From a virus: a DNA stretch of 41,670 bases. Under the pieces are notes generated by a model. It ran no database searches. It was given only the letters and a program-made list of their open reading frames with translations, and was not told the DNA's origin. A program made the translations under genes and the position numbers. The stretch lies in IMG/VR virus record IMGVR_UViG_3300045988_034731; one strand, written 5' to 3'. Within the stretch, counting starts at the first letter, position 1. The number at the start of each line of letters is the position of its first letter. Positions 1-41,670 of this stretch are shown here, piece after piece.

Positions 1-112
1 AGAGCAATATCATAAGCGGAAACTTTTATGGCGTAGATTTTGGGGATAATTTGTGGGTCGCTGCTGGCAGCACCGGCATGTATTACAGCACCGACGGGAA
101 GAACTGGACCCA
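1..112. repeat. Terminal direct repeat, identical to 41559-41670 (circular-closure overlap)
   Basis: Read base by base: agagcaatatcataagcgg...gggaagaactggaccca is present at both ends. The final base (a) distinguishes it from the internal near-copy at 189-225, which reads ggacccc. Confidence 0.95.
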
Positions 113-2170: not shown

Positions 2171-2869
2171 TTAGGGCTTCTTTTCCGGCTTCCGCTCTGG
2201 GAACTCCTGATAATACCACTCCAGGAACTTTCCGTGGGTTTGCTTCTCCGCCTCCTTCCGGATGGCGACGGCAACCTCTTTTTCTCGGCTTGATCCAAGG
2301 TAGTAGTTGATCCCCTTAAATGTGATCTCCGCTTTCCAGAGGCGCACAGATCGGTCATACGAGACGCCGACGGTCCCACTCGTGTTCCGTTTGTCGGGCG
2401 GCTGCATAAGCCCCTTCACGTCAGTTCCGTCGATAAAGTCGAGCTCTCTCTTTTCCCAGGCGGGGCGAATTGACTTTTGGTGGACCTCAGAAGAAAGACA
2501 ACCGCAGCTCTTGGTATACCCCTTGCGCAGATTGGTGGAGGCGATGCAGGCAGTATTCCCGCAGTCGCAGAGGCATTCCCAGATAACGCTGTGGCCCATG
2601 TGACGGTCCGTCCGGCGCAGCACCGTGAGCCGCCCGAAACGCTGGCCGGACAAATCCAGCAGATTTGTACCGGTCCGAGCACAGCCGCAGCTGGTGGTAT
2701 TCCCATTTGCCAGGTGGGCCGAGGTGACATAGGTTGTATTGCCGCAATCACAGCGGCACTCCCAGACAACCCGGTCAGAGACGCGGCGGTCAGTTTTAGC
2801 AATAACGGTCAGCCTTCCATATCGCTGACCTGGCTCGATGCGGCGGACCTTTCGCTTTTTCTCTTCCAC
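2171..2869 (-). CDS. DNA-binding protein with two Cys-rich zinc-ribbon-like modules and a C-terminal AP2-type domain
   Basis: GTG start with GGAGGTG RBS. Duplicated motif GRLTV..W.C.CDCGN(T)....L..G.T.SCGC. C-terminal SGTVGVSYDRSVRLWKAEITFKGINYYLGSSREKEVA resembles an AP2/ERF-type domain. Confidence 0.7.
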   Translation of the reverse strand: MEEKKRKVRRIEPGQRYGRLTVIAKTDRRVSDRVVWECRCDCGNTTYVTSAHLANGNTTSCGCARTGTNLLDLSGQRFGRLTVLRRTDRHMGHSVIWECLCDCGNTACIASTNLRKGYTKSCGCLSSEVHQKSIRPAWEKRELDFIDGTDVKGLMQPPDKRNTSGTVGVSYDRSVRLWKAEITFKGINYYLGSSREKEVAVAIRKEAEKQTHGKFLEWYYQEFPERKPEKKP

Positions 2870-2872
2870 GGC

Positions 2873-3214
2873 TCACACCTCCGGGCGGCGATAGTAGCCG
2901 GTTGCTTGAGCCAGCAAAAGCCGGACATAGTCCGGGCACTGGCTGTCGCCCCGCTCCCAATTCTCCACGGTGCGGTATGGGATCAGGTAGCGGAGAGCAA
3001 AGCTTGTGCGGGTGAGGCCAGTATAGGCCCGGATCTCCCGGATACTGGCGTGGGCCACATCCCAGAGGGCACCGAGGGCGCTGATCCGATGATCGGGCAC
3101 CTCAGCATCCGCGGCATCTCCCCATTCGGAGGACATCGCCCAATCGGAGACATACTCATCTCGATCATCCGTCTTTAGCGCGGCGCTGAAAAGTGCGCTG
3201 AATTTATCGTCCAT
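2873..3214 (-). CDS. HTH (XRE-like) transcriptional regulator
   Basis: IREIRAYTGLTRTSFALRYLIPYRTVENWERGDSQCPDYV is an HTH followed by the ENWE(R)G motif common in small XRE/antitoxin-type regulators. Translationally coupled to 2171..2869. Confidence 0.65.
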   Translation of the reverse strand: MDDKFSALFSAALKTDDRDEYVSDWAMSSEWGDAADAEVPDHRISALGALWDVAHASIREIRAYTGLTRTSFALRYLIPYRTVENWERGDSQCPDYVRLLLAQATGYYRRPEV

Positions 3215-3223
3215 ATCTCTCGG

Positions 3224-3415
3224 TCAAAAATCCCGGATCTCGTCCACGCAGATGGGGTCGCCCTCGTCGTCGATCACGGCGATGTAAGCGTCCTCGTACC
3301 CGTCGGCGCGGTACTTCTTGGCCATCTCGATAGCCTCGTCCATGTTGTTGCTGCCGGTGCCCCAATCGGTATCGTCGTTGTCCCGCATAACCGCATACCA
3401 CATAGTGTTCTTCAT
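3224..3415 (-). CDS. Small acidic hypothetical protein (63 aa), first gene of the leftward operon
   Basis: Internal ATG of track ORF 3224..3625, preceded by GGAGGAC at proper spacing. MKNTMWYAVMRDNDDTDWG... The longer N-terminal extension has no RBS. Confidence 0.6.
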   Translation of the reverse strand: MKNTMWYAVMRDNDDTDWGTGSNNMDEAIEMAKKYRADGYEDAYIAVIDDEGDPICVDEIRDF

Positions 3416-3458
3416 TTTTATGTCCTCCTGGGCTGTGCCCCTCTTGATTACATTACCC

Positions 3459-3486
3459 ATTATACACCAATTTGGGGTATTGTCAA
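3459..3486 (-). promoter_or_regulatory. Consensus sigma-A-type promoter facing left (TTGACA-16-TATAAT)
   Basis: The reverse complement of 3459-3486 reads ttgaca ataccccaaattggtg tataat. It drives the 3415-2171 operon. The spacer contains operator-like site O1. Confidence 0.7.
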
Positions 3487-3515
3487 GAGAAAATACACCA
3501 AATTGGTGTATTTTC
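3462..3515. promoter_or_regulatory. Two operator-like palindromes sharing the half-site TACACCAA
   Basis: O2 (3489-3515) is gaaaatacaccaa a ttggtgtattttc, with perfect 13-bp arms. O1 (3462-3480) is atacaccaatttggggtat, an imperfect version of the same dyad. Both lie in the divergent control region. Confidence 0.55.
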
Positions 3516-3588
3516 TGAGGTTTGGAGAGGTGCACAAATCCTGTGGAAGCTTTTGTGCGCTTTGCCACTTCCGCAGAATGCGGGCAGA

Positions 3589-3618
3589 ATCCGGGCAGTT
3601 TGGCTGCCCGGATTTTTT
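3589..3618 (+). terminator. Strong intrinsic terminator inside the leader, upstream of the rightward cassette
   Basis: atccgggcag tttgg ctgcccggat has a 10-bp perfect stem and is followed by ttttt. Preceded by hairpins at 3532-3558 (gcacaaa/tttgtgc) and 3571-3583 (ccgca/tgcgg). Confidence 0.7.
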
Positions 3619-3648
3619 GTACCATAAGGGAAGAAGGAAGGTGGTTAA

Positions 3649-3792
3649 ATGTTTGATCGCCTTATTGCCTGCGGCTTCACGGATCGCATGGCCTGGGACA
3701 TCATTATTGCTTACGCCAACGATCTGGACGGGCTGGCGCAGTACGTAAAAACCATTGAGCTGATGCATAGCGCTAGGGCGGATCATGTATAG
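3649..3792 (+). CDS. Small hypothetical protein (47 aa), not in the ORF track
   Basis: ATG 3649 preceded by ggaaggtgg. Translates as MFDRLIACGFTDRMAWDIIIAYANDLDGLAQYVKTIELMHSARADHV. Its end overlaps the next start. Confidence 0.4.
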   Translation: MFDRLIACGFTDRMAWDIIIAYANDLDGLAQYVKTIELMHSARADHV

Positions 3793-4168
3793 CTACTTTA
3801 ACCCAAACCCCAACGGGCGCAACGTTTCCGATTGCACCGTTCGGGCGATCTGCAAAGCAACCGGAAAGGACTGGGGCGAGGTTTATTTGGCGCTTTGCAT
3901 CCAGGGGTATTTGGACGGCGATCTTCCTAATGCCAACGCCTGCTGGGGCGCTTACCTTCGCAAGCTGGGGTATCGGAGGCATATCGTCCCAGATACTTGC
4001 CCGGATTGCTTCACGGTGGCGGATTTTGCGGCGGAAAGGCCGGTAGGCACATACATTTTGGCGCTATCCGGGCATGTGGTATGCGTACAGGATGGTGTGA
4101 TTTTTGATTCGTGGAATTCTAGCGGCGAAGTGCCGCTGTACTACTGGGAAAAAGAAACGGAGGCATAA
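3785..4168 (+). CDS. Hypothetical protein with possible Cys/His/Asp (papain-like) arrangement
   Basis: N-terminal NVSDCTVRAI (Cys), later LSGHVVCV (His) and FDSWN (Asp). The fold assignment is inference only. Confidence 0.6.
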   Translation: MYSYFNPNPNGRNVSDCTVRAICKATGKDWGEVYLALCIQGYLDGDLPNANACWGAYLRKLGYRRHIVPDTCPDCFTVADFAAERPVGTYILALSGHVVCVQDGVIFDSWNSSGEVPLYYWEKETEA

Positions 4169-4170
4169 AC

Positions 4171-4605
4171 ATGGCGTTTAATCCTTACTACCAAAACCCG
4201 TATTATCCTCAACCGATGCCTGATAACCTCATGCAGATGCGGCAGCAGCAGATGATGCAGCCGCAGATGCCACAGCCCGTTCCGCAGAATCCGGTGGCGC
4301 AAGGCAGCGTGCAGTGGGTAAGCGGCGAGCAGGAGGCAAGAGGCTATCTCATCGCTCCCAACTCTGCTGTGGCGCTGTGGGATTCCACCGCTCCGACTGT
4401 GTATCTCAAGCAAGCGGATGCAAGTGGCAAGCCGACGCTCAAGATTTACGACCTCGTAGAGCGCACAGAAACGGCTGCTCCTGCCACGCAAAAGGCGAGA
4501 GTGGAGTTTGTCACCCGTGAAGAATTTGACCGTCTGGCGGCGCTTGTTGGCGAATTAAAGGGCAAGAAGAAGCGCAAGGTTGAGGAGGACGAGGACGATG
4601 ACTAA
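4171..4605 (+). CDS. Hypothetical protein with Q/P/Y-rich N-terminus and acidic/basic tail
   Basis: MAFNPYYQNPYYPQPMPDNLMQMRQQQMMQPQMPQPVPQNP..., ending KGKKKRKVEEDEDDD. Starts 3 nt after the previous stop. Confidence 0.65.
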   Translation: MAFNPYYQNPYYPQPMPDNLMQMRQQQMMQPQMPQPVPQNPVAQGSVQWVSGEQEARGYLIAPNSAVALWDSTAPTVYLKQADASGKPTLKIYDLVERTETAAPATQKARVEFVTREEFDRLAALVGELKGKKKRKVEEDEDDD

Positions 4606-4816
4606 TCCGTTCATGGCCGCGCTGGGCGGCGGGCAGATGCCGGGGCCAATGGGCAACTTCGCACAGATGGTGCAGCAGTTTCAGCAATTCAAGGCGAACT
4701 TTCAGGGCGATCCAAAAGCAGAGGTCGAAAAGCTCTTGCAGAGCGGTAAGCTAAACCAGCAGCAGCTCAACCAGCTTCAGCAGATGGCAAAGCAGTTTCA
4801 AAGTCTGATGCGGTAA
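4598..4816 (+). CDS. Small Q-rich hypothetical protein (72 aa)
   Basis: ATG 4598 with GAGGAGG 9 nt upstream and an ATGACTAA overlap with the upstream stop. MTNPFMAALGGGQMPGPMGNFAQMVQQFQQF... Confidence 0.6.
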   Translation: MTNPFMAALGGGQMPGPMGNFAQMVQQFQQFKANFQGDPKAEVEKLLQSGKLNQQQLNQLQQMAKQFQSLMR

Positions 4817-4876
4817 TCATCAACACAAATCAACATCGTGGCCACGATTTGATAAATAATTAAAAGGAGTGATTTT

Positions 4877-5611
4877 ATGTCTCTTTCCGATGGCGGCGCT
4901 CCCATGCTGACCATGCCGGTCTCGCCTACCAACAACGGCGGCGGTTTCGGCTGGGGCGGTGACGGCGCATGGCTCATTATTCTCTTCCTCATTTTTGCCG
5001 TCTTTGGCTGGGGCGGCAACAGCTGGGGCAACAACGCTGGCAATTCCGGCGGCGTGGTCGATGGCTATGTGCTGACTTCTGATTTTGCTAATGTCGAGCG
5101 CAAGATCGACAGTGTAAATCAGGGCCTTTGCGACGGCTTTTACCAGCAGGCGCAGCTTGTCAACGGCACCAACATGGCGATGGCAAACGGCTTTGCACAG
5201 GCAGAGCTTTCCCGCAGCAACCAGCAGGCGGCGCTTATGCAGCAGCTCAACGCCATGCAGATGCAGGCCGCAGATTGCTGCTGCGAGAATCGCGCGGCTA
5301 TCGCGCAGGTGCGCTATGACATGGCAACGCAGGCGTGCGACACGCGCAACACCGTACAGAACGCCACGCGCGACATTATTGACGCGAACAACCAGAACAG
5401 CCGCGCCATCCTCGATTTCCTGACGCAGAGCAAGCTGTCCGACCTCCAGACCGAGAATCAGAATCTGAAGCTGGCGGCATCTCAGGCCGCGCAGAACAAC
5501 TATCTGATCTCGCAGCTGCGTCCGTGCCCTTCGCCTGCCTACATTACTTGTAACCCGTGGGCGGGCAGCGGTTACGGCGGCTGCGGCTGCAATCAGGGCT
5601 GCGGCTGCTGA
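4877..5611 (+). CDS. Membrane-anchored protein: Gly/Trp-rich YjcZ-like N-terminus with TM, Q/N-rich coiled coil with CCC motif, Cys/Gly-rich C-terminus
   Basis: RBS aaaaggag. NNGGGFGWGGDGAWLIILFLIFAVFGWGGNSWGNN; central ...MQAADCCCENRAAIAQV...; C-terminal CPSPAYITCNPWAGSGYGGCGCNQGCGC. Confidence 0.75.
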   Translation: MSLSDGGAPMLTMPVSPTNNGGGFGWGGDGAWLIILFLIFAVFGWGGNSWGNNAGNSGGVVDGYVLTSDFANVERKIDSVNQGLCDGFYQQAQLVNGTNMAMANGFAQAELSRSNQQAALMQQLNAMQMQAADCCCENRAAIAQVRYDMATQACDTRNTVQNATRDIIDANNQNSRAILDFLTQSKLSDLQTENQNLKLAASQAAQNNYLISQLRPCPSPAYITCNPWAGSGYGGCGCNQGCGC

Positions 5612-5679
5612 CAACTGCATAGCATAGCTTTTTGCCGACAACGGCAAAATGATCGGCCCCGTGCCGATACTGCGACAAC

Positions 5680-5712
5680 GCGGCGGGGCTATTGCCTCGC
5701 CGCTGTATTTTA
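5680..5712 (+). terminator. Candidate intrinsic terminator or attenuating hairpin after 4877..5611
   Basis: gcggcg gggctattgcct cgccgc (6-bp GC stem) followed by tgtatttta. Further hairpins at 5629-5646 (tttgccg acaa cggcaaa) and 5716-5731. Confidence 0.45.
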
Positions 5713-5752
5713 ACAGGGTCGATTTCGACCCCTTTAGAAAGGACTGATTATT

Positions 5753-6175
5753 TTGGCAGAGTACACAAACGCGAATATTGTAAGCGTAGCCGCAGGGCAG
5801 AACGTCCCCTTGACCGAAACGGCGGTCAATAGCAAGCCGTGTATCGTGCATCGCCAGGGCGCAGGCATTGTCACGCTGCGCGGCCTCACTAATCAAAATC
5901 GCGCCCTGTTTAGGATCTCCTTTGGCGGCAACATCGCTATTCCAACCGGAGGCACGGTCGAGGCCATCACGGCGGCGCTTGCCATCAACGGAGAGCCGCT
6001 GACCAGTGCAACGGCAACTGTCACGCCTGCGGCGGTAGAGAACTACTTTAACATTTATGTTTCCGCACAGGTTTGCGTCCCGAAAGGCTGCTGCCTGACG
6101 GTCGCAATGGAAAACACCAGCACTCAGGCCGTCAACTTCGCCAACTCGAATCTGACGGTTGAGAGAATCGCGTGA
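5753..6175 (+). CDS. BclA C-terminal-domain-like (TNF/C1q-type jelly-roll) protein without a collagen-like region
   Basis: TTG start with agaaagga 9 nt upstream. All-beta pattern QNVPLTETAV...LFRISFGGNIAIP...AALAINGEPLTSATA...NSNLTVERIA resembles, from memory, the exosporium BclA C-terminal domain (...IQVNGVPVPGT...SASIIIEKVA). Confidence 0.55.
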   Translation: MAEYTNANIVSVAAGQNVPLTETAVNSKPCIVHRQGAGIVTLRGLTNQNRALFRISFGGNIAIPTGGTVEAITAALAINGEPLTSATATVTPAAVENYFNIYVSAQVCVPKGCCLTVAMENTSTQAVNFANSNLTVERIA

Positions 6176-6188
6176 AAGGAGAATGGAC

Positions 6189-6563
6189 ATGAGTAAGAAA
6201 GCAATGTATGATCTTCGCAATATGCTGTGCGATGAGCTGGACGAACTGGCTCGCAAGGGCGAGCTGGGCGCCGGGGACCTGGAGATTGCCCACAAGCTGA
6301 CGGCTACCATCAAGAATATCGACAAGATCGAGATGATGGAAAGCGAGGGCTATTCCGGCACAGGCGACTGGGAGGCTGACATCCGTGGCACCTACGGCCA
6401 CGGCGATTCCTGGCGGGGCCGCCATCGGGATTCCCGCGGTAGGTATAGCCGCACTGGCGGGGCAGAGCATTTGCGGGAGCAGCTCAATGATATGATGCGG
6501 GAAACCGACGACGAGCGGGTAAAGGAGGCCCTTCGGCGGGCAATGTCCCTGATGGAGGGCTAA
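6189..6563 (+). CDS. Hypothetical helical protein with an Arg/Gly/Ser-rich centre
   Basis: ATG 6189 lies 7 nt after AAGGAG. MSKKAMYDLRNMLCDELDELARKGELGAGDLEIAHKL...RGRHRDSRGRYSRTGG... Confidence 0.65.
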   Translation: MSKKAMYDLRNMLCDELDELARKGELGAGDLEIAHKLTATIKNIDKIEMMESEGYSGTGDWEADIRGTYGHGDSWRGRHRDSRGRYSRTGGAEHLREQLNDMMRETDDERVKEALRRAMSLMEG

Positions 6564-6577
6564 GGGGGTGTAACCCC

Positions 6578-6919
6578 ATGATCGACGAGAACGAGCTCCG
6601 GCTATGGATCAGCCGCCTAGAAACGGAAGAATCCAGCTGGAACAACTACGAGAAACTAGCGGCGCTCTACATCATCCAGAACCAGCAAAAGAAAACGCCC
6701 GAAAGCACAGCAGCTCCGGTGATGTACTCCGCTGCGGCGGCTCCTTCCGTTATGGCGAGCGCTGACGTGGGAGAGTACGGCGATACCGATTTTCTCCGGG
6801 CCGTCGCTGGGAAGGACCCGGCAAAGGCATGGATAGTTGTGGATGAGCTGATGGATACGTTACGCATTGTAAACGAGCGGGTTTACAACAGCGTAATGCG
6901 GAAGATTCAGGCTCTTTAA
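6578..6919 (+). CDS. Hypothetical protein, last gene of the cassette
   Basis: RBS taaggggg. MIDENELRLWISRLETEESSWNNYEKLAALYII... Ends immediately before the att region. Confidence 0.65.
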   Translation: MIDENELRLWISRLETEESSWNNYEKLAALYIIQNQQKKTPESTAAPVMYSAAAAPSVMASADVGEYGDTDFLRAVAGKDPAKAWIVVDELMDTLRIVNERVYNSVMRKIQAL

Positions 6920-6926
6920 CTCCGCA

Positions 6927-6950
6927 AAATTGCACACGAAATTGCACACG
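6927..6950 (+). repeat. Tandem 12-nt repeat aaattgcacacg x2 (candidate integrase arm-type sites, left arm)
   Basis: Exact copies at 6927-6938 and 6939-6950. The same doublet recurs at 7156-7179, with an inverted copy at 7124-7134. Confidence 0.7.
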
Positions 6951-6994
6951 ACTTGATTCTTTCGTTGAATTTATGCGGTTTGTAAAGGTTTTAA

Positions 6995-7024
6995 GCAGGG
7001 GTTCAACTCCCCTCGCCTCCACCA
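6995..7024 (+). other. 3'-terminal fragment of a tRNA or tmRNA (T-arm, acceptor 3' strand, ACCA): probable attP core
   Basis: agggg ttcaact cccct (T stem-loop), then cgcctcc (acceptor 3' strand), then a + cca. No matching 5' acceptor strand (GG(A/G)GGCG) or anticodon arm lies upstream. Confidence 0.65.
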
Positions 7025-7025
7025 A

Positions 7026-7066
7026 AAGGAAAACCGAGGAATCTCAATGGTTCCCCGGTTTTCCTT
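7026..7066 (+). terminator. Hairpin/terminator following the tRNA-like 3' end
   Basis: aaggaaaaccg / cggttttcctt is an 11-bp stem with a 19-nt loop, followed by gatttt. Confidence 0.5.
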
Positions 7067-7123
7067 GATTTTATGCGGGTTTGGCGGCTCTTGCGTCTTG
7101 TAAATTTTACAAGTCTATTTTAG

Positions 7124-7179
7124 CGTGTGCAATTAAAAATCAATTTTTAAGGGAAAAATTGCACACGAAATTGCACACG
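7124..7179. repeat. Right-arm copies of the ttgcacacg motif (one inverted, two direct)
   Basis: cgtgtgcaatt at 7124-7134 is the inverted copy. aaattgcacacg occurs at 7156-7167 and 7168-7179. Located directly upstream of the integrase stop. Confidence 0.7.
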
Positions 7180-7187
7180 AAAATGGG

Positions 7188-8213
7188 CTATTCTTTCGGA
7201 GCGAACAACTCCTCAAAATGCCCGTCAATGATTTTATCAAACGCCTTTTCTTTTTCGGCGAGAGTGTGTTGGTATGTGGTTTTCAGCATGTTATTGGTAG
7301 CGTGGCCCATCCGCTTTATGCCGTACTTATCCGGGATGCCTTCCGCCAGCATGACGGATGCGTTAAAGTGCCGCAGATCGTGGAATCGGTAGTGCCTGAC
7401 TTTGGCCTTCTCGCAGATGCGGACAAAGCCACTATATAGCGCATGTCCGGAAAGGTTCACAATGTGTTCGCTTGTCTTCGGCTGCCTCTGGATTAAATCC
7501 AAAAGGTAGGGCGGAAGGTGTATCCTTCTGGTGCCGCTGTACGTTTTTACTCCTTTTTCAACAGGCCCGTTTTCACCGGCCACAATGGCCCTCCGGATTT
7601 GCAGATACTCACCATTGATATCATCCCAGCGCAGGCCAATAATCTCGGATGCCCGGAGGCCAAGCCAAATGGCAATCATAATTGGCAGCTCGTATTTTGT
7701 ACCTTTGCATGCGTTGGCAATGGCTACAGCGTCGGCCTCAGACGGTATCTCAATTTCCGTTTTTACTTTTTGTGGCATGGTTGTGCGTAAAGCCATTTCC
7801 GGCTTATACTCCGCAAGGATGGGGCTTAAAAATCCGTGTGCGTTTGCGATTGTCTTTGGCGTTTTTCCTTCCCTCGATAGCCTGTTTACCCAGCGTTGCA
7901 CTCGCTCTTGTGTGAGATCGGCTAAAACGATATTCTCAATATCCTTCATCAGATTTTTCCGGATGCGTTTATACCCAGCAATGGTGGACGGGGAAAGAAC
8001 CTCGCTTCTGGATTCGATGTATCGGTCGGCAGCTTCCCCAACTGTAAGTCTTCTTACAGGCTTTTGCGCCTCCACCATTTTTGTTTTGATGCCGGAGGCC
8101 CAAAATTGAGCCTCTTCCGCCGTATCAAAAGTGTTTCCAACTCGTTTCCCGTCAACCATGATCTGGATGCGGTATTTCCCCGATGGTAGTTTTATTGGCT
8201 CTGGAATTTTCAC
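7188..8213 (-). CDS. int: Tyrosine recombinase (phage integrase)
   Basis: GTG start with GGAGGA RBS. N-terminal SAM-like/arm-binding region. C-terminal catalytic motifs LRASE, HDLRH and GHATNNMLKTTYQH (Tyr nucleophile context). Confidence 0.95.
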   Translation of the reverse strand: MKIPEPIKLPSGKYRIQIMVDGKRVGNTFDTAEEAQFWASGIKTKMVEAQKPVRRLTVGEAADRYIESRSEVLSPSTIAGYKRIRKNLMKDIENIVLADLTQERVQRWVNRLSREGKTPKTIANAHGFLSPILAEYKPEMALRTTMPQKVKTEIEIPSEADAVAIANACKGTKYELPIMIAIWLGLRASEIIGLRWDDINGEYLQIRRAIVAGENGPVEKGVKTYSGTRRIHLPPYLLDLIQRQPKTSEHIVNLSGHALYSGFVRICEKAKVRHYRFHDLRHFNASVMLAEGIPDKYGIKRMGHATNNMLKTTYQHTLAEKEKAFDKIIDGHFEELFAPKE

Positions 8214-39900: not shown

Positions 39901-41670
39901 GGACATTGACCAGGTGGGCACGGCGGACGTCTTCAACGGCCAGAACTCGGTCATGTGGGTCAACCTCCGGCAGGCATACGGAGCGGAGATCGCCGCCATG
40001 TACCAGTCTCTCCGTTCCACCGGGAAGCTCTCCTACGCTCTCGTGGAAGAGATGTTTGAGACCCATCAGGCCAAGTGGCCGGAGGCCATTTTCAACGAGG
40101 ACGCCTACTTCAAGTATTTGCAGCCCCTCATCGAGGACGGCACCTCCGCCTACCTCTCCATGCTCCAAGGCAGCAAGGCGGAGCAGCGTAAGTGGTGGCT
40201 CTACAACCGCTTCCGCTATCTGGACGCTAAGTACAACGCCGGGGACGCCCTGACGGACACCATTACCCTGCGTGGCTACGCCAAAGACAATATCTCCGTG
40301 ACGCCCTACGCCGACATCTACGCCTCCATCAAGTACGGCTCCTACCTCGTCCAGAAGCGGGCCCTGCGGGGCAGCAGTTACGTGCTGGAGTGCCCCCTGG
40401 ATAACGTCAACGACACGGAAATCTACGTGTACAGCGCCTCCCAGCTCAAGGCCATTGGCGACCTCAGCGGCCTGAAGGTGGGCTACGCCGAGTTCAGCCT
40501 GGCGACCCGGCTCCAGAGTCTCAAGCTGGGCGACAGCGCCGAGAGCTACAGCAACCCCAACCTGACGGAGCTGTACCTGGGCAACAACCGCCTCCTCACC
40601 ACCCTGGACGTGCGCAACTGCCCCAACCTCACCATGGCGGTGGATGTCTCCGGCTGCACCGGCCTGGAACACGCCTACTTTGACGGCACCGCCATCACCG
40701 GCCTGACCCTCCCCAACGGCGGCGTCCTCAAAACGCTGCACCTGCCCGCCACCGTCACCAACCTCACCGTCCGCAACCAGGGCGGCATCACGGACTTCTC
40801 TATGCCTGCCTATTCGGCCATCACCACCCTGCGGGTGGAGAACTCCCCCGCCATCCCGGCCAAGGACATTCTCTCCGCCATGGCGGCCAACAGCCGTGTC
40901 CGGCTCCTGGGCGTCAGCTGGAGCTTTGACACGGCGGCGGACATCCTCTCCCTGCTGGATACCCTGGACACCATGCGGGGCCTGGACGAGCAGGGCAACA
41001 ACGTGGATAAGGCCCAGGTCAGCGGCACGGTCTCCACCACCAACATCACCGGGGCCCAGTTGGCGGACATCCACAGCCGCCACCCCGACCTCACGGTGGT
41101 GTATCAGCACATCACCTCGCAGCTCAAGTTCTACAACGGCACTACGCTCCTCCAGACCGTGGACGTGGTAGACGGCGGCGACGGGGCCTATACCGGCAGC
41201 ACACCCACCAAAGCCAGCACGGCCCAGTACAGCTACACCTTCGCCGGTTGGTCCCTGACGGACGGCGGCCCGGTGGATGCCAACGCCACCAAGGCCGTGA
41301 CAGCGGACCGGAACGTCTACGCCGCCTTTACCGCAACCGTGCGGACCTACACCGTGCGCTTCTACAACGGTTCCACCCTCCTCCAGACGTCCACCAACAT
41401 CCCCTACGGCGGCAGCGCCAGCTATACCGGGACCGCACCCACCAAGGAAGGGGACTACGAGTTCACGGGATGGAGTCCCAGCCCCAGCAACATCACGGGA
41501 GATACCAACTGCTATGCGCAGTTCCGGTTTACGGGGTTGCCGGGGATTGCGTGGACCCAGAGCAATATCATAAGCGGAAACTTTTATGGCGTAGATTTTG
41601 GGGATAATTTGTGGGTCGCTGCTGGCAGCACCGGCATGTATTACAGCACCGACGGGAAGAACTGGACCCA
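36971..41670 (+). CDS. Giant multidomain tail-fibre/receptor-binding protein, running off the window end and continuing at 1..563 (1,716 aa in total). Domain order: LamG-like, CotH kinase-like, LRR-like, two Listeria-Bacteroides repeats, Asp-box blades.
   Basis: I translated frame 2 from ATG 36971 to 41670 codon by codon and found no stop. Approximate domain positions: LamG-like about 38270-38880, CotH-like about 38950-40240, LRR-like about 40440-40900, Flg_new-type repeats about 41110-41535, blades from about 41540. Confidence 0.9.
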   Translation, partial: MADKSINDLPAVESLADDGLLPVYQDGGAKRLTGAQLSQYAGDAAVDAVTEQAEEITKAATKTATEAATAAASSASAAAGSAATAKANADAVDPDAINSRIAAKADNLYFDEDTKLLYLTSGGEIIGDGIKVSVGGSGGGGGSDNNAVLTLSNTTGWIFKSIAMGAACPLSVSWSSLEDGLATGGGVLKVTVNGAQKLTQQVAQGAVTVDVGSYLSPGTNAVKVNISDVYGNSRTLSFSITAVALSLSSSFDASVPYTGAIAYPYTPTGTATKVMHFKLDGVELETVTVTASGRQQTYTIPAQTHGSHSLEVWFTATVDGESVSSNVLRYDLICTVEGTTTPIIASAWQQATAEQYSTLSIPYIVYNPSGLTAEITLKVGSTVLKTLTVDRTEQVWSYRADEVGALSLSIVCGSVTKTFTTTVTESTVNVEAETADLALHLTASGRSNTEANKSSWSYGSIAASLTGFNWTSDGWTTDADGITALRVAGDARVTIPLQIFAQDFRTTGKTIELEFATRDVMDYDATVISCLSGGRGIKVTAQKASLTSEQSEVSTQYKEDEHVRLAFVVEKRAENRLILVYINGILSGAVQYPADDDFSQSSPVGISIGSNSCTTDIYGIRVYNNSLTRYQVLNNWIADSQAIDDLLARYQRNKVYDDYGQIVIDDLPQDLPYLILEGPELPQYKGDKKTVSGSFVDPTDSSRNFTFTGASINVQGTSSQYYARKNYKVTFKGGFVVDGVTAAKYALRPGAIPVDTFTFKADVASSEGANNVELVRLYNDACPYQTPPQEANSAVRQGIDGFPMVIFWRHGDETTFLGKYNFNNDKGTPEVYGFAEGDESWEILNNTSDRVLWKSADFTGDWTGDFEGRYPDGNTDTTKLAALAAWLVSTDQSAVTSDADKAARLAKFKSELPDHLELQSALFYYLFTELFLMVDSRAKNAFPSHLGPDKWCWLPYDFDTAIGTNNEGALVFGYALEDIDQVGTADVFNGQNSVMWVNLRQAYGAEIAAMYQSLRSTGKLSYALVEEMFETHQAKWPEAIFNEDAYFKYLQPLIEDGTSAYLSMLQGSKAEQRKWWLYNRFRYLDAKYNAGDALTDTITLRGYAKDNISVTPYADIYASIKYGSYLVQKRALRGSSYVLECPLDNVNDTEIYVYSASQLKAIGDLSGLKVGYAEFSLATRLQSLKLGDSAESYSNPNLTELYLGNNRLLTTLDVRNCPNLTMAVDVSGCTGLEHAYFDGTAITGLTLPNGGVLKTLHLPATVTNLTVRNQGGITDFSMPAYSAITTLRVENSPAIPAKDILSAMAANSRVRLLGVSWSFDTAADILSLLDTLDTMRGLDEQGNNVDKAQVSGTVSTTNITGAQLADIHSRHPDLTVVYQHITSQLKFYNGTTLLQTVDVVDGGDGAYTGSTPTKASTAQYSYTFAGWSLTDGGPVDANATKAVTADRNVYAAFTATVRTYTVRFYNGSTLLQTSTNIPYGGSASYTGTAPTKEGDYEFTGWSPSPSNITGDTNCYAQFRFTGLPGIAWTQSNIISGNFYGVDFGDNLWVAAGSTGMYYSTDGKNWT
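41559..41670. repeat. Terminal direct repeat, identical to 1-112
   Basis: Same evidence as for 1-112. Confidence 0.95.

Follow-up and report, generated by a model that had tools for sequence, protein, structure and literature searches.

The window analysed here is a stretch of 41,670 nucleotides (nt), IMG/VR record IMGVR_UViG_3300045988_034731, and all cassette coordinates given below are window positions. Its source is a temperate phage whose genome was assembled circularly. At the right end of this genome, between the lysis genes and the phage attachment site (attP), lie eight co-directional, tightly packed open reading frames (ORFs) on the + strand (3649-6919), which we call o1 to o8; a small gene upstream of them, sig4, encodes a helix-turn-helix (HTH) protein. 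Four features of this region are well supported, namely an operon of eight genes in fixed order, an HTH protein with its cognate DNA repeats, an internal RNA built on a terminator, and a protein with the ExsFA/BclA fold. We tentatively propose that a regulatory cascade controls these genes and that their products may form a late, intracellular, membrane-anchored layer or fibre. The genes of the cassette, with their matches to PHROG families and the E-values (E) of these matches, are as follows.

3649-3792, + strand: o1, a 47-amino-acid (aa) helical protein
3785-4168, + strand: o2, a 127-aa alpha/beta protein (phrog_3754, E 1e-34)
4171-4605, + strand: o3, with a Gln/Pro/Tyr-rich N-terminus, a beta-rich core and a Lys-rich, then acidic tail (phrog_21718, E 1e-32)
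4598-4816, + strand: o4, a 72-aa Gln/Lys-rich helical protein (phrog_22984, E 5e-20)
4877-5611, + strand: o5, 244 aa (phrog_16490, E 3e-44)
5753-6175, + strand: o6, 140 aa, a predicted stand-alone TNF/C1q-like jelly roll (phrog_20016, E 8e-53)
6189-6563, + strand: o7, with helical N- and C-terminal segments and an Arg/Gly/Tyr/Ser-rich disordered centre (phrog_28802, E 4e-11)
6578-6919, + strand: o8, 113 aa, helical and conserved at both ends, variable and Ala/Ser-rich in the centre

The o1-o8 ORFs are real genes under purifying selection: the ratio of nonsynonymous to synonymous substitution rates (dN/dS), calculated against several relatives, is 0.0-0.5 for all eight and for sig4. Six of the eight match PHROG families (E from 1e-11 to 1e-53), every one of which is listed as of unknown function. 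The sequence-only reading of this DNA had described the packed ORFs, their position between the lysis genes and attP, and the low-complexity makeup of o3, o4 and o5, including the CCC motif and the Cys/Gly tail of o5. Each of these descriptions holds, with a CHAP endolysin on one side, a tmRNA-type attP on the other, and the compositional biases visible in the translations.

The comparison covered 80 IMG/VR loci, 3 phage records in GenBank, Dulem virus 33 among them, and 30 loci of GTDB genomes. The order o2-o8 is identical in all 80 IMG/VR loci, in the three GenBank phages and in most of the 30 genome loci, and it is kept in every related locus long enough to show these genes (>110 loci). The genes thus move as a unit, the opposite of the individual scattering of homologues that the sequence-only reading had named as a refutation of its idea. 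The carriers belong to a phage lineage with common head and tail genes. Around the cassette, the lysin, holins, integrase and repressor are often unrelated between loci, and in more distant carriers the distal tail genes are unrelated as well. Foreign DNA enters some lineages at three joints (sig4|o1, o4|o5 and o5|o6), and in Dulem virus 33 one of these inserts carries an endonuclease annotation. The farthest relatives (our loci L107 and L110-L112), whose o6 proteins are 42-51% identical, retain only o5-o6, plus o7 in two of them, and therefore o5-o6(-o7) is likely the functional core. At L110:11077-11301 and L112:11039-11344, a small ORF for an ImmA/IrrE-like metalloprotease (HEIxH) replaces o8 after o5-o6-o7.

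The position of the cassette recalls that of morons and lysogenic-conversion cassettes, which include bor and lom of phage lambda and, in Gram-positive hosts, toxin and immune-evasion genes located between the lysis genes and attR. The cassette shares with them its place between lysis genes and attachment site and a predicted promoter of its own, and to this extent the earlier description of it as a moron stands. It differs from them in that it is not variable cargo: order and content are fixed across the lineage, the cassette was kept in every relative examined, and its eight genes are coupled through their predicted regulator to the lytic late unit. Scans of the eight proteins against Pfam, NCBIfam and PADLOC gave nothing above chance, Pfam scans of distant homologues of o3, o4, o5, o7 and o8 gave no match, and sequence and profile searches of the Protein Data Bank (PDB) with o2, o5, o6 and o7 gave none either. 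As a whole the cassette matches no described system, although few gene sets are commoner in human-gut prophages of this group; in kind it is a prophage-end accessory operon.

The predicted promoter of o1, its repeats and the sig4 protein

The elements that we assign to the control of the cassette are the following.

1890-2126, + strand: sig4, a 78-aa HTH protein resembling sigma-70 region 4; last gene of the lysis unit
2127-2161, + strand: intrinsic terminator with a 16-bp stem (-31.6 kcal/mol, z-score (z) -7.7), closing the lysis/sig4 unit
3573-3601, + strand: three direct repeats (GCAGAAT, GCAGAAT, GCAGTTT) with a spacing of exactly 11 bp; the third covers the -35 position
3587-3619, + strand: hairpin with a T-run (-22.4 kcal/mol, z -6.3), over the third repeat and the promoter spacer
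3620-3625, + strand: -10-like hexamer TACCAT of the predicted module promoter, P_o1, with its ribosome-binding site (RBS) at 3636-3644

Against Pfam Sigma70_r4_2, sig4 scores E 7e-5 and 22.7 bits, under the gathering cut-off of 25.7, and a low-GC relative matches Pfam Sigma70_r4 with E 2e-4; GerE/LuxR (PF00196) is not among the Pfam matches of sig4. The gene is kept upstream of the cassette in most loci, and a hairpin with a T-run lies directly 3' of it in the other lineages inspected as well. Because this terminator follows sig4 and no terminator-like element was found between the endolysin gene and sig4, the lysis unit appears to end with sig4. A short ORF that starts at 1838 behind a strong RBS (GAGAGGAGG) overlaps the sig4 start in another frame, and the RBS of sig4 itself is weak; this overlap may reflect translational coupling or regulation of sig4.

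Three repeats with at most two mismatches are found in 38 of 44 non-redundant upstream regions, compared with 1.5% of shuffles. The third repeat stands ~17-18 bp 5' of a TAYNAT hexamer, and the hexamer lies ~25 nt before the o1 start; in the lineages inspected it reads TACCAT, TACTAT, TATGAT, TATCAT or TATTAT at the same distance from o1. From this conserved position we infer that the hexamer is the -10 element of P_o1. The repeats fall into five classes (GCAGAAT, CACTTT, TGACCA, GGGCAWWW and GACCT-type), each of which pairs with its own version of the C-terminal HTH half of sig4. Identity in this half predicts the repeat class with an area under the curve (AUC) of 0.993, and the highest identity between classes is 0.70. 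The N-terminal half of sig4 and o1, the gene adjacent to the promoter, recombine freely: their AUC is 0.81, and identical sequences occur in different repeat classes. The association holds irrespective of the distance between sig4 and o1 (95 or 1,865 bp).

Judging from this covariation, sig4 most likely recognises the phased repeats, and, because the promoters have no canonical -35 element, its role is most probably that of an activator or of a surrogate for -35 recognition. The genes o1-o8 would then be 'post-late' genes, expressed very late in the lytic cycle rather than in the lysogen, because their predicted regulator ends the lysis transcription unit. The hairpin at 3587-3619, which is present in three of the repeat classes (A, B and E) and missing in class C (TGACCA), probably insulates the promoter from upstream transcription.

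Phage late activators such as Alt of the lactococcal phage TP901-1 and those of the RinA/ArpU type bind tandem repeats upstream of a late promoter. The predicted sig4 system resembles them in its small HTH protein, in its phased repeats that end at the -35 of a promoter without a canonical -35, and in its modular specificity. It differs in that sig4 consists of a sigma region-4-like domain alone (78 aa), comes last among the genes of the late/lysis unit, and has its sole predicted site in the genome at an accessory cassette, not at structural genes. A role for sig4 as a general late activator was rejected, since the window holds no second repeat array. A sporulation-sigma promoter upstream of o1 was likewise rejected; the only element common to all lineages is the sigma-A-like TAYNAT.

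Between the sig4 terminator and the repeats, the window carries a lineage-specific insertion that lies outside the module.

2171-3511, minus strand: inserted cassette
2171-2869, minus strand: HNH-endonuclease-family/AP2-like gene
2873-3214, minus strand: 113-aa HTH protein
3224-3415, minus strand: 63-aa acidic protein
3486..3459, minus strand: sigma-70 promoter matching 12 of 12 consensus positions, serving the divergent block
3462-3480 and 3493-3511: palindromic operators (ATACACCAAATTGGTGTAT) that bracket the minus-strand promoter

Proteins of this insertion match phrog_374 and phrog_25567, and its largest gene (2171-2869), previously taken for an 'AP2/Zn-ribbon' regulator, belongs to an HNH-endonuclease PHROG. 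The divergent block occurs only in the closest relatives (the L003/L008 type); elsewhere the joint holds other cargo or nothing. The three-gene operon had been read as the regulator of the module, which we reject because it is missing from most lineages. The cassette does have a predicted control region of its own, as had been claimed, in the form of P_o1, the repeats and sig4, but the elements named in that claim were the wrong ones: the 'operator/promoter' at 3459-3511 is a minus-strand promoter that drives the divergent insertion, and the hairpin at 3587-3619, described as capping a leader, lies across the third repeat and the -35, outside any transcribed leader, and is missing from some lineages. 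In other lineages, inserts at the sig4|o1 joint have different palindromes in the same arrangement, which suggests that such palindrome-bracketed inserts form a family of self-regulated mobile elements.

A structured RNA between o5 and o6

The spacer between o5 and o6 is conserved down to relatives with 50% o6 identity and holds the following elements, all on the + strand.

5625-5755: structured RNA leader of o6, comprising P1, P2, the terminator P3, an optional P4 and the RBS
5630-5637/5642-5649: P1
5653-5657/5663-5667: P2, UCGGC-CCCGU-GCCGA
5680-5689/5694-5703: P3, a terminator with a 10-bp GC-rich stem (-23.1 kcal/mol) and a U-run at 5704-5713
5716-5721/5726-5731: P4, optional
5656-5660 and 5663-5666, pairing with 5681-5689: alternative antiterminator
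5737-5743: RBS of o6

A covariance model built from 32 leader sequences matched 58 of 64 loci (44-116 bits), each of them once and invariably on the + strand. In the proposed structure 98.3% of cells are paired, compared with 40-64% in slid registers, and 16 of 23 pairs show compensatory changes (130 cells), a level that none of 500 shuffles reached; the folding z is -5.1. The sequence of P1 varies freely and all 8 of its pairs co-vary, the third pair of P2 is G-C, A-U or C-G, and compensatory change is seen in 7 of the 10 pairs of P3. Two junctions are conserved, AUGNU between P1 and P2 and UACU(G)ACAACAAC between P2 and the terminator. Among further IMG/VR contigs found with the P2 sequence, o6 lies downstream on the same strand in 112 of 119. 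The alternative antiterminator, in which the loop and 3' arm of P2 would pair with the 5' arm of the terminator, has 97.2% of its cells paired, as against 41-56% in slid registers. When transcripts are truncated before the 3' arm of the terminator, the antiterminator is part of the minimum-energy fold in most of 17 diverse sequences; full-length transcripts fold as P1, P2 and the terminator.

These observations make the RNA a candidate for a new attenuator family. As in riboswitch platforms and in protein-mediated antitermination, a GC-rich terminator sits just upstream of the RBS (here that of o6), the predicted antiterminator upstream would take up the terminator's 5' arm and so exclude the terminator, P2 would serve as an anti-antiterminator, and covariation is strong. 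It differs from those systems in that it has no Rfam family (a scan of 5612-5755 with Rfam 15 gave none at E<=10), in its small conserved 'sensor' of P1, P2 and two junctions, and in its position inside an operon and not at the 5' end. In minimal variants of the leader there is no space for a promoter between the terminator and the RBS, and therefore expression of o6-o8 must depend on read-through. A promoter inside or downstream of the leader, for which GATACT was considered, was rejected because that sequence varies at key positions.

All 55 distinct leaders have an NUG triplet at the P1/P2 junction (5650-5652), in most of them AUG and in the others UUG or CUG. The triplet of the window starts a reading frame of 32 codons (5649-5747), which spans the terminator and has its stop 5 nt short of the o6 start. 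We rejected a leader peptide starting at this triplet, given that the frame varies by lineage, no Shine-Dalgarno sequence precedes it, and the covariation in P2 alters the amino acids. Five loci (L021:5795-6001, L044, L088, L090 and L100) have an extra conserved helical ORF of 68-74 aa (MKTIDELKQEF...) between the RNA and o6, and by this placement it would also be under the attenuator.

The encoded proteins and the assembly they may form

A HMMER scan of 1.8 billion representatives placed o6 in a family of 556 clusters at 50% identity, whose members, fragments apart, are mostly ~135-160 aa long. The AlphaFold2 model of o6, computed from the family alignment, has a predicted local distance difference test score (pLDDT) of 97.2. 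In a Foldseek search of this model against the PDB, ranks 1-19 are all F-BclA, ExsFA, BxpB or BclA (TM-score 0.68-0.76); lower ranks are EDA/TNF/C1q proteins and then phage fibre knobs. The nearest BFVD entries are uncharacterised 130-145-aa phage proteins from gut metagenomes, two of which are named 'BclA protein'. The window o6 has no match to Pfam PF18573 (BclA_C) at E<=1, and 3 of 63 aligned o6 relatives reach that family (best E 7.3e-7). On the evidence of the structural model, o6 has a TNF/C1q-like jelly-roll fold of the BclA-C-terminal-domain/ExsFA type, and the resemblance of this ORF to the BclA C-terminal domain, previously noticed from its letters, is borne out by the predicted structure and by Foldseek.

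In the Bacillus cereus group, ExsFA/BxpB anchors the exosporium basal layer, the C-terminal domain of BclA forms the tip of the nap fibres, and F-BclA forms the tip fibrillum of F-ENA appendages (comparison structures PDB 7r1m, 8d02, 1wck, 9h38 and 9h3d). The modelled o6 has the same jelly roll (Foldseek E ~1e-6, probability 1.0) and, like ExsFA/BxpB, is a stand-alone domain of ~140 aa without collagen stalk or signal peptide, accompanied by Cys-rich and low-complexity proteins. There are no collagen-like GXX repeats in the o6 sequence and the family is a stand-alone domain, lacking the stalk and the N-terminal exosporium-targeting motif of BclA-type proteins, so that in architecture o6 is nearer to ExsFA/BxpB than to the collagen-stalked BclA. 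It differs from the Bacillus proteins in that sequence identity is just 10-14%, it is encoded by a phage and its hosts are Oscillospiraceae, not Bacillus, no partner of the ExsY/CotY, CotE or collagen-like kind was detected, and its predicted control is by a phage HTH protein and an RNA attenuator instead of sigma-K and GerE. No other gene of the region is as strongly conserved as o6, whether judged by protein sequence or by synonymous sites, and in pairs in which o2, o7 and o8 are saturated (dS >1) the dS of o6 is only 0.2-0.37. Its low dS may reflect a recently exchanged mosaic block (o5-3'/leader/o6), very high expression, or constraint at the nucleotide level.

The partner proteins are of several kinds. 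Homologues of o1 are 40-49 aa long in the lineages inspected (dN/dS 0-0.26). In the alignment of o2, Asp16-Cys17, His97 and Asp108 are invariant; its AlphaFold2 model has a pLDDT of 93.5, and its Foldseek matches are all weak, comprising Josephin-2 (probability 0.51, TM-score 0.45), Tae4, TssM and the PaTox protease. We suspect from the model that o2 has a minimal papain-like fold with a Cys-His-Asp triad, and the assignment as an enzyme is tentative. The beta-rich core of o3 is conserved among relatives, and dN/dS is ~0.1 for both o3 and o4. In the alignment of o5 the N-terminus is conserved; next come a hydrophobic segment flanked by Gly and Trp (~aa 31-45), an extended helical region that is rich in Asn, Gln and Ala and contains the invariant CCC, a stretch rich in Pro and, at the C-terminus, the Cys/Gly tail. 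For o5 no relative of known structure or Pfam family was detected, and the likeness to YjcZ that had been suggested for it found no NCBIfam or Pfam match at E<=1. The centre of o7 is longer in distant relatives, the L110 and L112 ORFs encoding proteins of 200-220 aa, and homologues of o8 are syntenic in most loci (dN/dS 0.12-0.22). Direct reading of the translations revealed no N-terminal signal peptide in any of the eight proteins.

In spore coats and exosporia, cross-linking involves the transglutaminase Tgl, the Cys-rich proteins CotY/ExsY and CdeC/CdeM, and Tyr-rich coat proteins. The small Cys-His-Asp protein o2 and its Gln/Lys-, Tyr- and Cys-rich companions, all without secretion signals, are analogous to these in makeup, and no sequence match or significant structural match to any of those coat and exosporium proteins was found. 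That the cassette builds a surface layer had been suggested before, and the BclA/ExsFA fold together with the Cys/Tyr/Gln-rich partners is consistent with a layer that assembles itself or is cross-linked; that the proteins have no secretion signal argues against its lying on the outside of vegetative cells.

We favour a model in which these genes form an autonomous accessory operon of widespread temperate tailed phages of gut Oscillospiraceae and related Clostridia. Transcription of the lysis unit would yield sig4 and then reach the terminator. sig4 would bind the three 11-bp-phased repeats, the promoter-proximal one replacing a -35 element upstream of the TAYNAT -10, and this binding would switch on o1-o5. 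RNA polymerase would then arrive at the leader RNA, where the P2 hairpin and the GC-rich terminator would compete with the antiterminator helix, and o6-o8 would be made only when some signal favours read-through. We consider this regulatory architecture probable. As for the products, o5 might anchor in the cytoplasmic membrane through its Gly/Trp-flanked segment, with a long helical Cys-bearing stalk projecting from it; o6 might form a BclA/ExsFA-like trimer that caps the assembly; o3 (Gln/Tyr/Pro), o4 (Gln/Lys) and o7 (Arg/Gly/Tyr-rich) could be linker or matrix components; and o2 could process or cross-link its partners. Because no protein has a secretion signal, assembly would occur inside the producing cell, like that of coat and exosporium proteins in the mother cell, and it would be timed to the very end of the lytic cycle, sig4 being a gene of the lysis unit. 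The target surface might be the inner face of the membrane, the forespore or the progeny particles. This assembly model is doubtful, and the cascade and the layer or fibre taken together make a proposal that is possible and that we hold tentatively.

A bolder form of this proposal, which we think unlikely, is that the cassette is a phage-encoded kit for building a coat- or exosporium-like assembly. sig4 and then the RNA switch would release the o5 stalk, the o6 trimer, the matrix proteins and a cross-linking or processing enzyme, and these parts would self-assemble in the dying or sporulating cell as an exosporium-like protein layer. Around host spores, such a layer would amount to phage-driven remodelling of the spore surface; around progeny particles, it would be a bacterial counterpart of viral occlusion bodies that aids persistence in the gut. 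The same proposal would bring with it a sigma region-4 domain that stands alone and takes over recognition of the -35, and an attenuator RNA of a new class. If a coat-like assembly exists, it would give phages a new means of changing the surface of gut Clostridia or of phage particles, or the persistence of either; should there be no coat, the sig4/repeat system and the RNA would still be new regulatory parts for genetically difficult organisms. The analysis links an abundant cassette of hypothetical proteins to the fold of a Bacillus exosporium protein, and tractable handles are provided by a predicted pair of transcription factor and operator with lineage-swapped specificity, a previously undescribed candidate terminator/antiterminator RNA, and the putative o5-o6(-o7) core.

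Several points weigh against the favoured model. The covariation of sig4 with the repeats could be due in part to physical linkage, an objection opposed by the finding that o1 lies nearer to the repeats than sig4 does and is nevertheless less associated with them. sig4 could be a repressor instead, and the timing of expression is read from gene order alone. The antiterminator shows just 3 compensatory cells and draws mainly on conservation and energy calculations. The farthest relatives (L107 and L110-L112) have no such RNA and keep only o5-o6(-o7), and thus the full cascade is clade-specific. The fold assignment of o2 is weak, as its best Foldseek probability shows, and the TNF-like fold of o6 is also common among phage fibre knobs.

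The exosporium likeness of o6 raises an alternative in which the cassette serves lysogenic conversion of the spore surface, expression in the mother cell adding a cross-linked ExsFA/BclA-like layer to the host spore. The best PDB matches of o6 are all Bacillus exosporium or spore-appendage proteins, three of its relatives match Pfam BclA_C, signal peptides are absent as in coat and exosporium proteins, o5 is Cys-rich and its partners Tyr/Gln-rich, the hosts are Clostridia, and a decayed prophage (see below) keeps the leader, o6 and o7 intact. sig4, moreover, is a small HTH regulator of the size of GerE. Nevertheless, sig4 matches Sigma70_r4 and not the GerE/LuxR Pfam family and is wired to the lysis unit, and the -10 element is the sigma-A-like TAYNAT, with no sigma-K or sigma-E consensus conserved across lineages by eye. 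In addition, some contigs that carry an o5-o6 pair were binned as 'Bacilli' and Anaeroplasmatales, which often do not sporulate (this binning is unreliable), and a literature search found no report of phage-encoded exosporium proteins or of BclA/ExsFA-like cassettes in phages. We regard spore conversion as rather unlikely.

The lower-ranking fibre knobs point instead to the virion, where o6 trimers might decorate finished particles or form an auxiliary knob, with o5 and o7 as stalk or adaptor. TNF/C1q-like knobs do tip the fibres of phages and giant viruses (the phi812 central spike, the short fibre of cyanophage A-1(L), fibritin whiskers), the predicted very late expression would coincide with particles, and the cassette belongs to the core of a phage lineage with common head and tail genes. 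Against this, the cassette stands outside the structural module behind its own predicted promoter and attenuator, occurs with unrelated distal tail genes, and persists as a remnant without a phage; the conservation of o6 far exceeds what is usual for receptor-binding proteins, the membrane-type hydrophobic segment and Cys clusters of o5 would be unusual in virion proteins, and the phage already has a fibre of ~1,600 aa. A virion accessory therefore seems to us quite unlikely.

The features of o5 also bear on a third alternative, in which it would be a spanin- or fusion-like protein that, helped by its partners, breaches an outer envelope layer during lysis or egress. Its N-terminal membrane segment would then be followed by a coiled coil and Cys-mediated oligomers, an architecture that recalls Rz-type i-spanins, and the cassette lies directly downstream of the holin and endolysin genes; the best profile matches of o5 are coiled coils of viral fusion proteins (E 0.35-0.7, not significant). 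The hosts, however, are monoderm Clostridia with no outer membrane, a separate promoter and attenuator would be unexpected for lysis genes, and a BclA-like trimer has no known role in lysis. We judge this explanation very unlikely.

A membrane protein at the end of a prophage, adjoining lysogeny genes and retained in a decayed copy, would also suit a defence that the prophage expresses at the level of the envelope, be it superinfection exclusion or some other kind. That the cassette might be a defence system had been offered in the sequence-only reading, and it finds no counterpart in PADLOC-DB, where none of the ten proteins tested matches a family (best E 0.043, no stretch being matched). 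Known exclusion systems need far less than eight genes and two tiers of control, defence cargo is usually variable among related phages whereas this cassette is fixed, and the regulator is tied to the lysis unit, all of which make exclusion or defence improbable.

Genome ends, hosts and a decayed prophage

The remaining features of the region flank the lysis genes or lie beyond the cassette.

36971 onward, wrapping to 563: tail fibre of ~1,600 aa, spanning the circular junction
582-896: XhlA-like gene of the lysis group
Between the XhlA-like gene and the endolysin gene: two small transmembrane proteins
1327-1815: CHAP endolysin of the lysis group
6927-7181: attP, with a copy of the 3' end of transfer-messenger RNA (tmRNA) at 6949-7024 (Rfam tmRNA, E 3e-6)
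7188-8213, minus strand: tyrosine integrase, next after attP

An exact direct repeat of 112 nt joins the two ends of the window (1-112 and 41559-41670), from which it follows that the assembly is circular and that the true genome is ~41.56 kb. Residues 900-991 of the fibre form a Pfam CotH domain, so that the CotH-like domain noted earlier in this protein is substantiated, and the fibre also contains repeated YYSTDGKNWT motifs. Paired direct/tandem repeats (AAATTGCACACGAAATTGCACACGA) at 6927-6950 and 7157-7181 bracket the attP core and are likely arm-type binding sites of the integrase. The cassette is the final block before attP. An integrated prophage copy in a 1.25-Mb metagenomic contig stops directly past o8, and host housekeeping genes come next.

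The hosts are mainly Oscillospiraceae and other Clostridia, and the close relatives are RefSeq 'hypothetical proteins' of Hominenteromicrobium; a literature search on sporulation in this genus yielded nothing informative. No cassette gene has a functional annotation, all being called 'hypothetical' despite their abundance: more than 586 IMG/VR contigs, predominantly from human gut samples, carry o6, and clusters at 90% identity number 7,603 for o6, at least 7,900 for o5 and at least 7,800 for o2. A decayed prophage lies amid host metabolic genes at L091:8600-10820 (CAKUMO010000002, a 120-kb Oscillospiraceae contig). In this remnant an insertion sequence-type transposase cuts o5, and the RNA leader, o6 (83% identical) and o7 are still intact, which could mean either domestication or slow decay.

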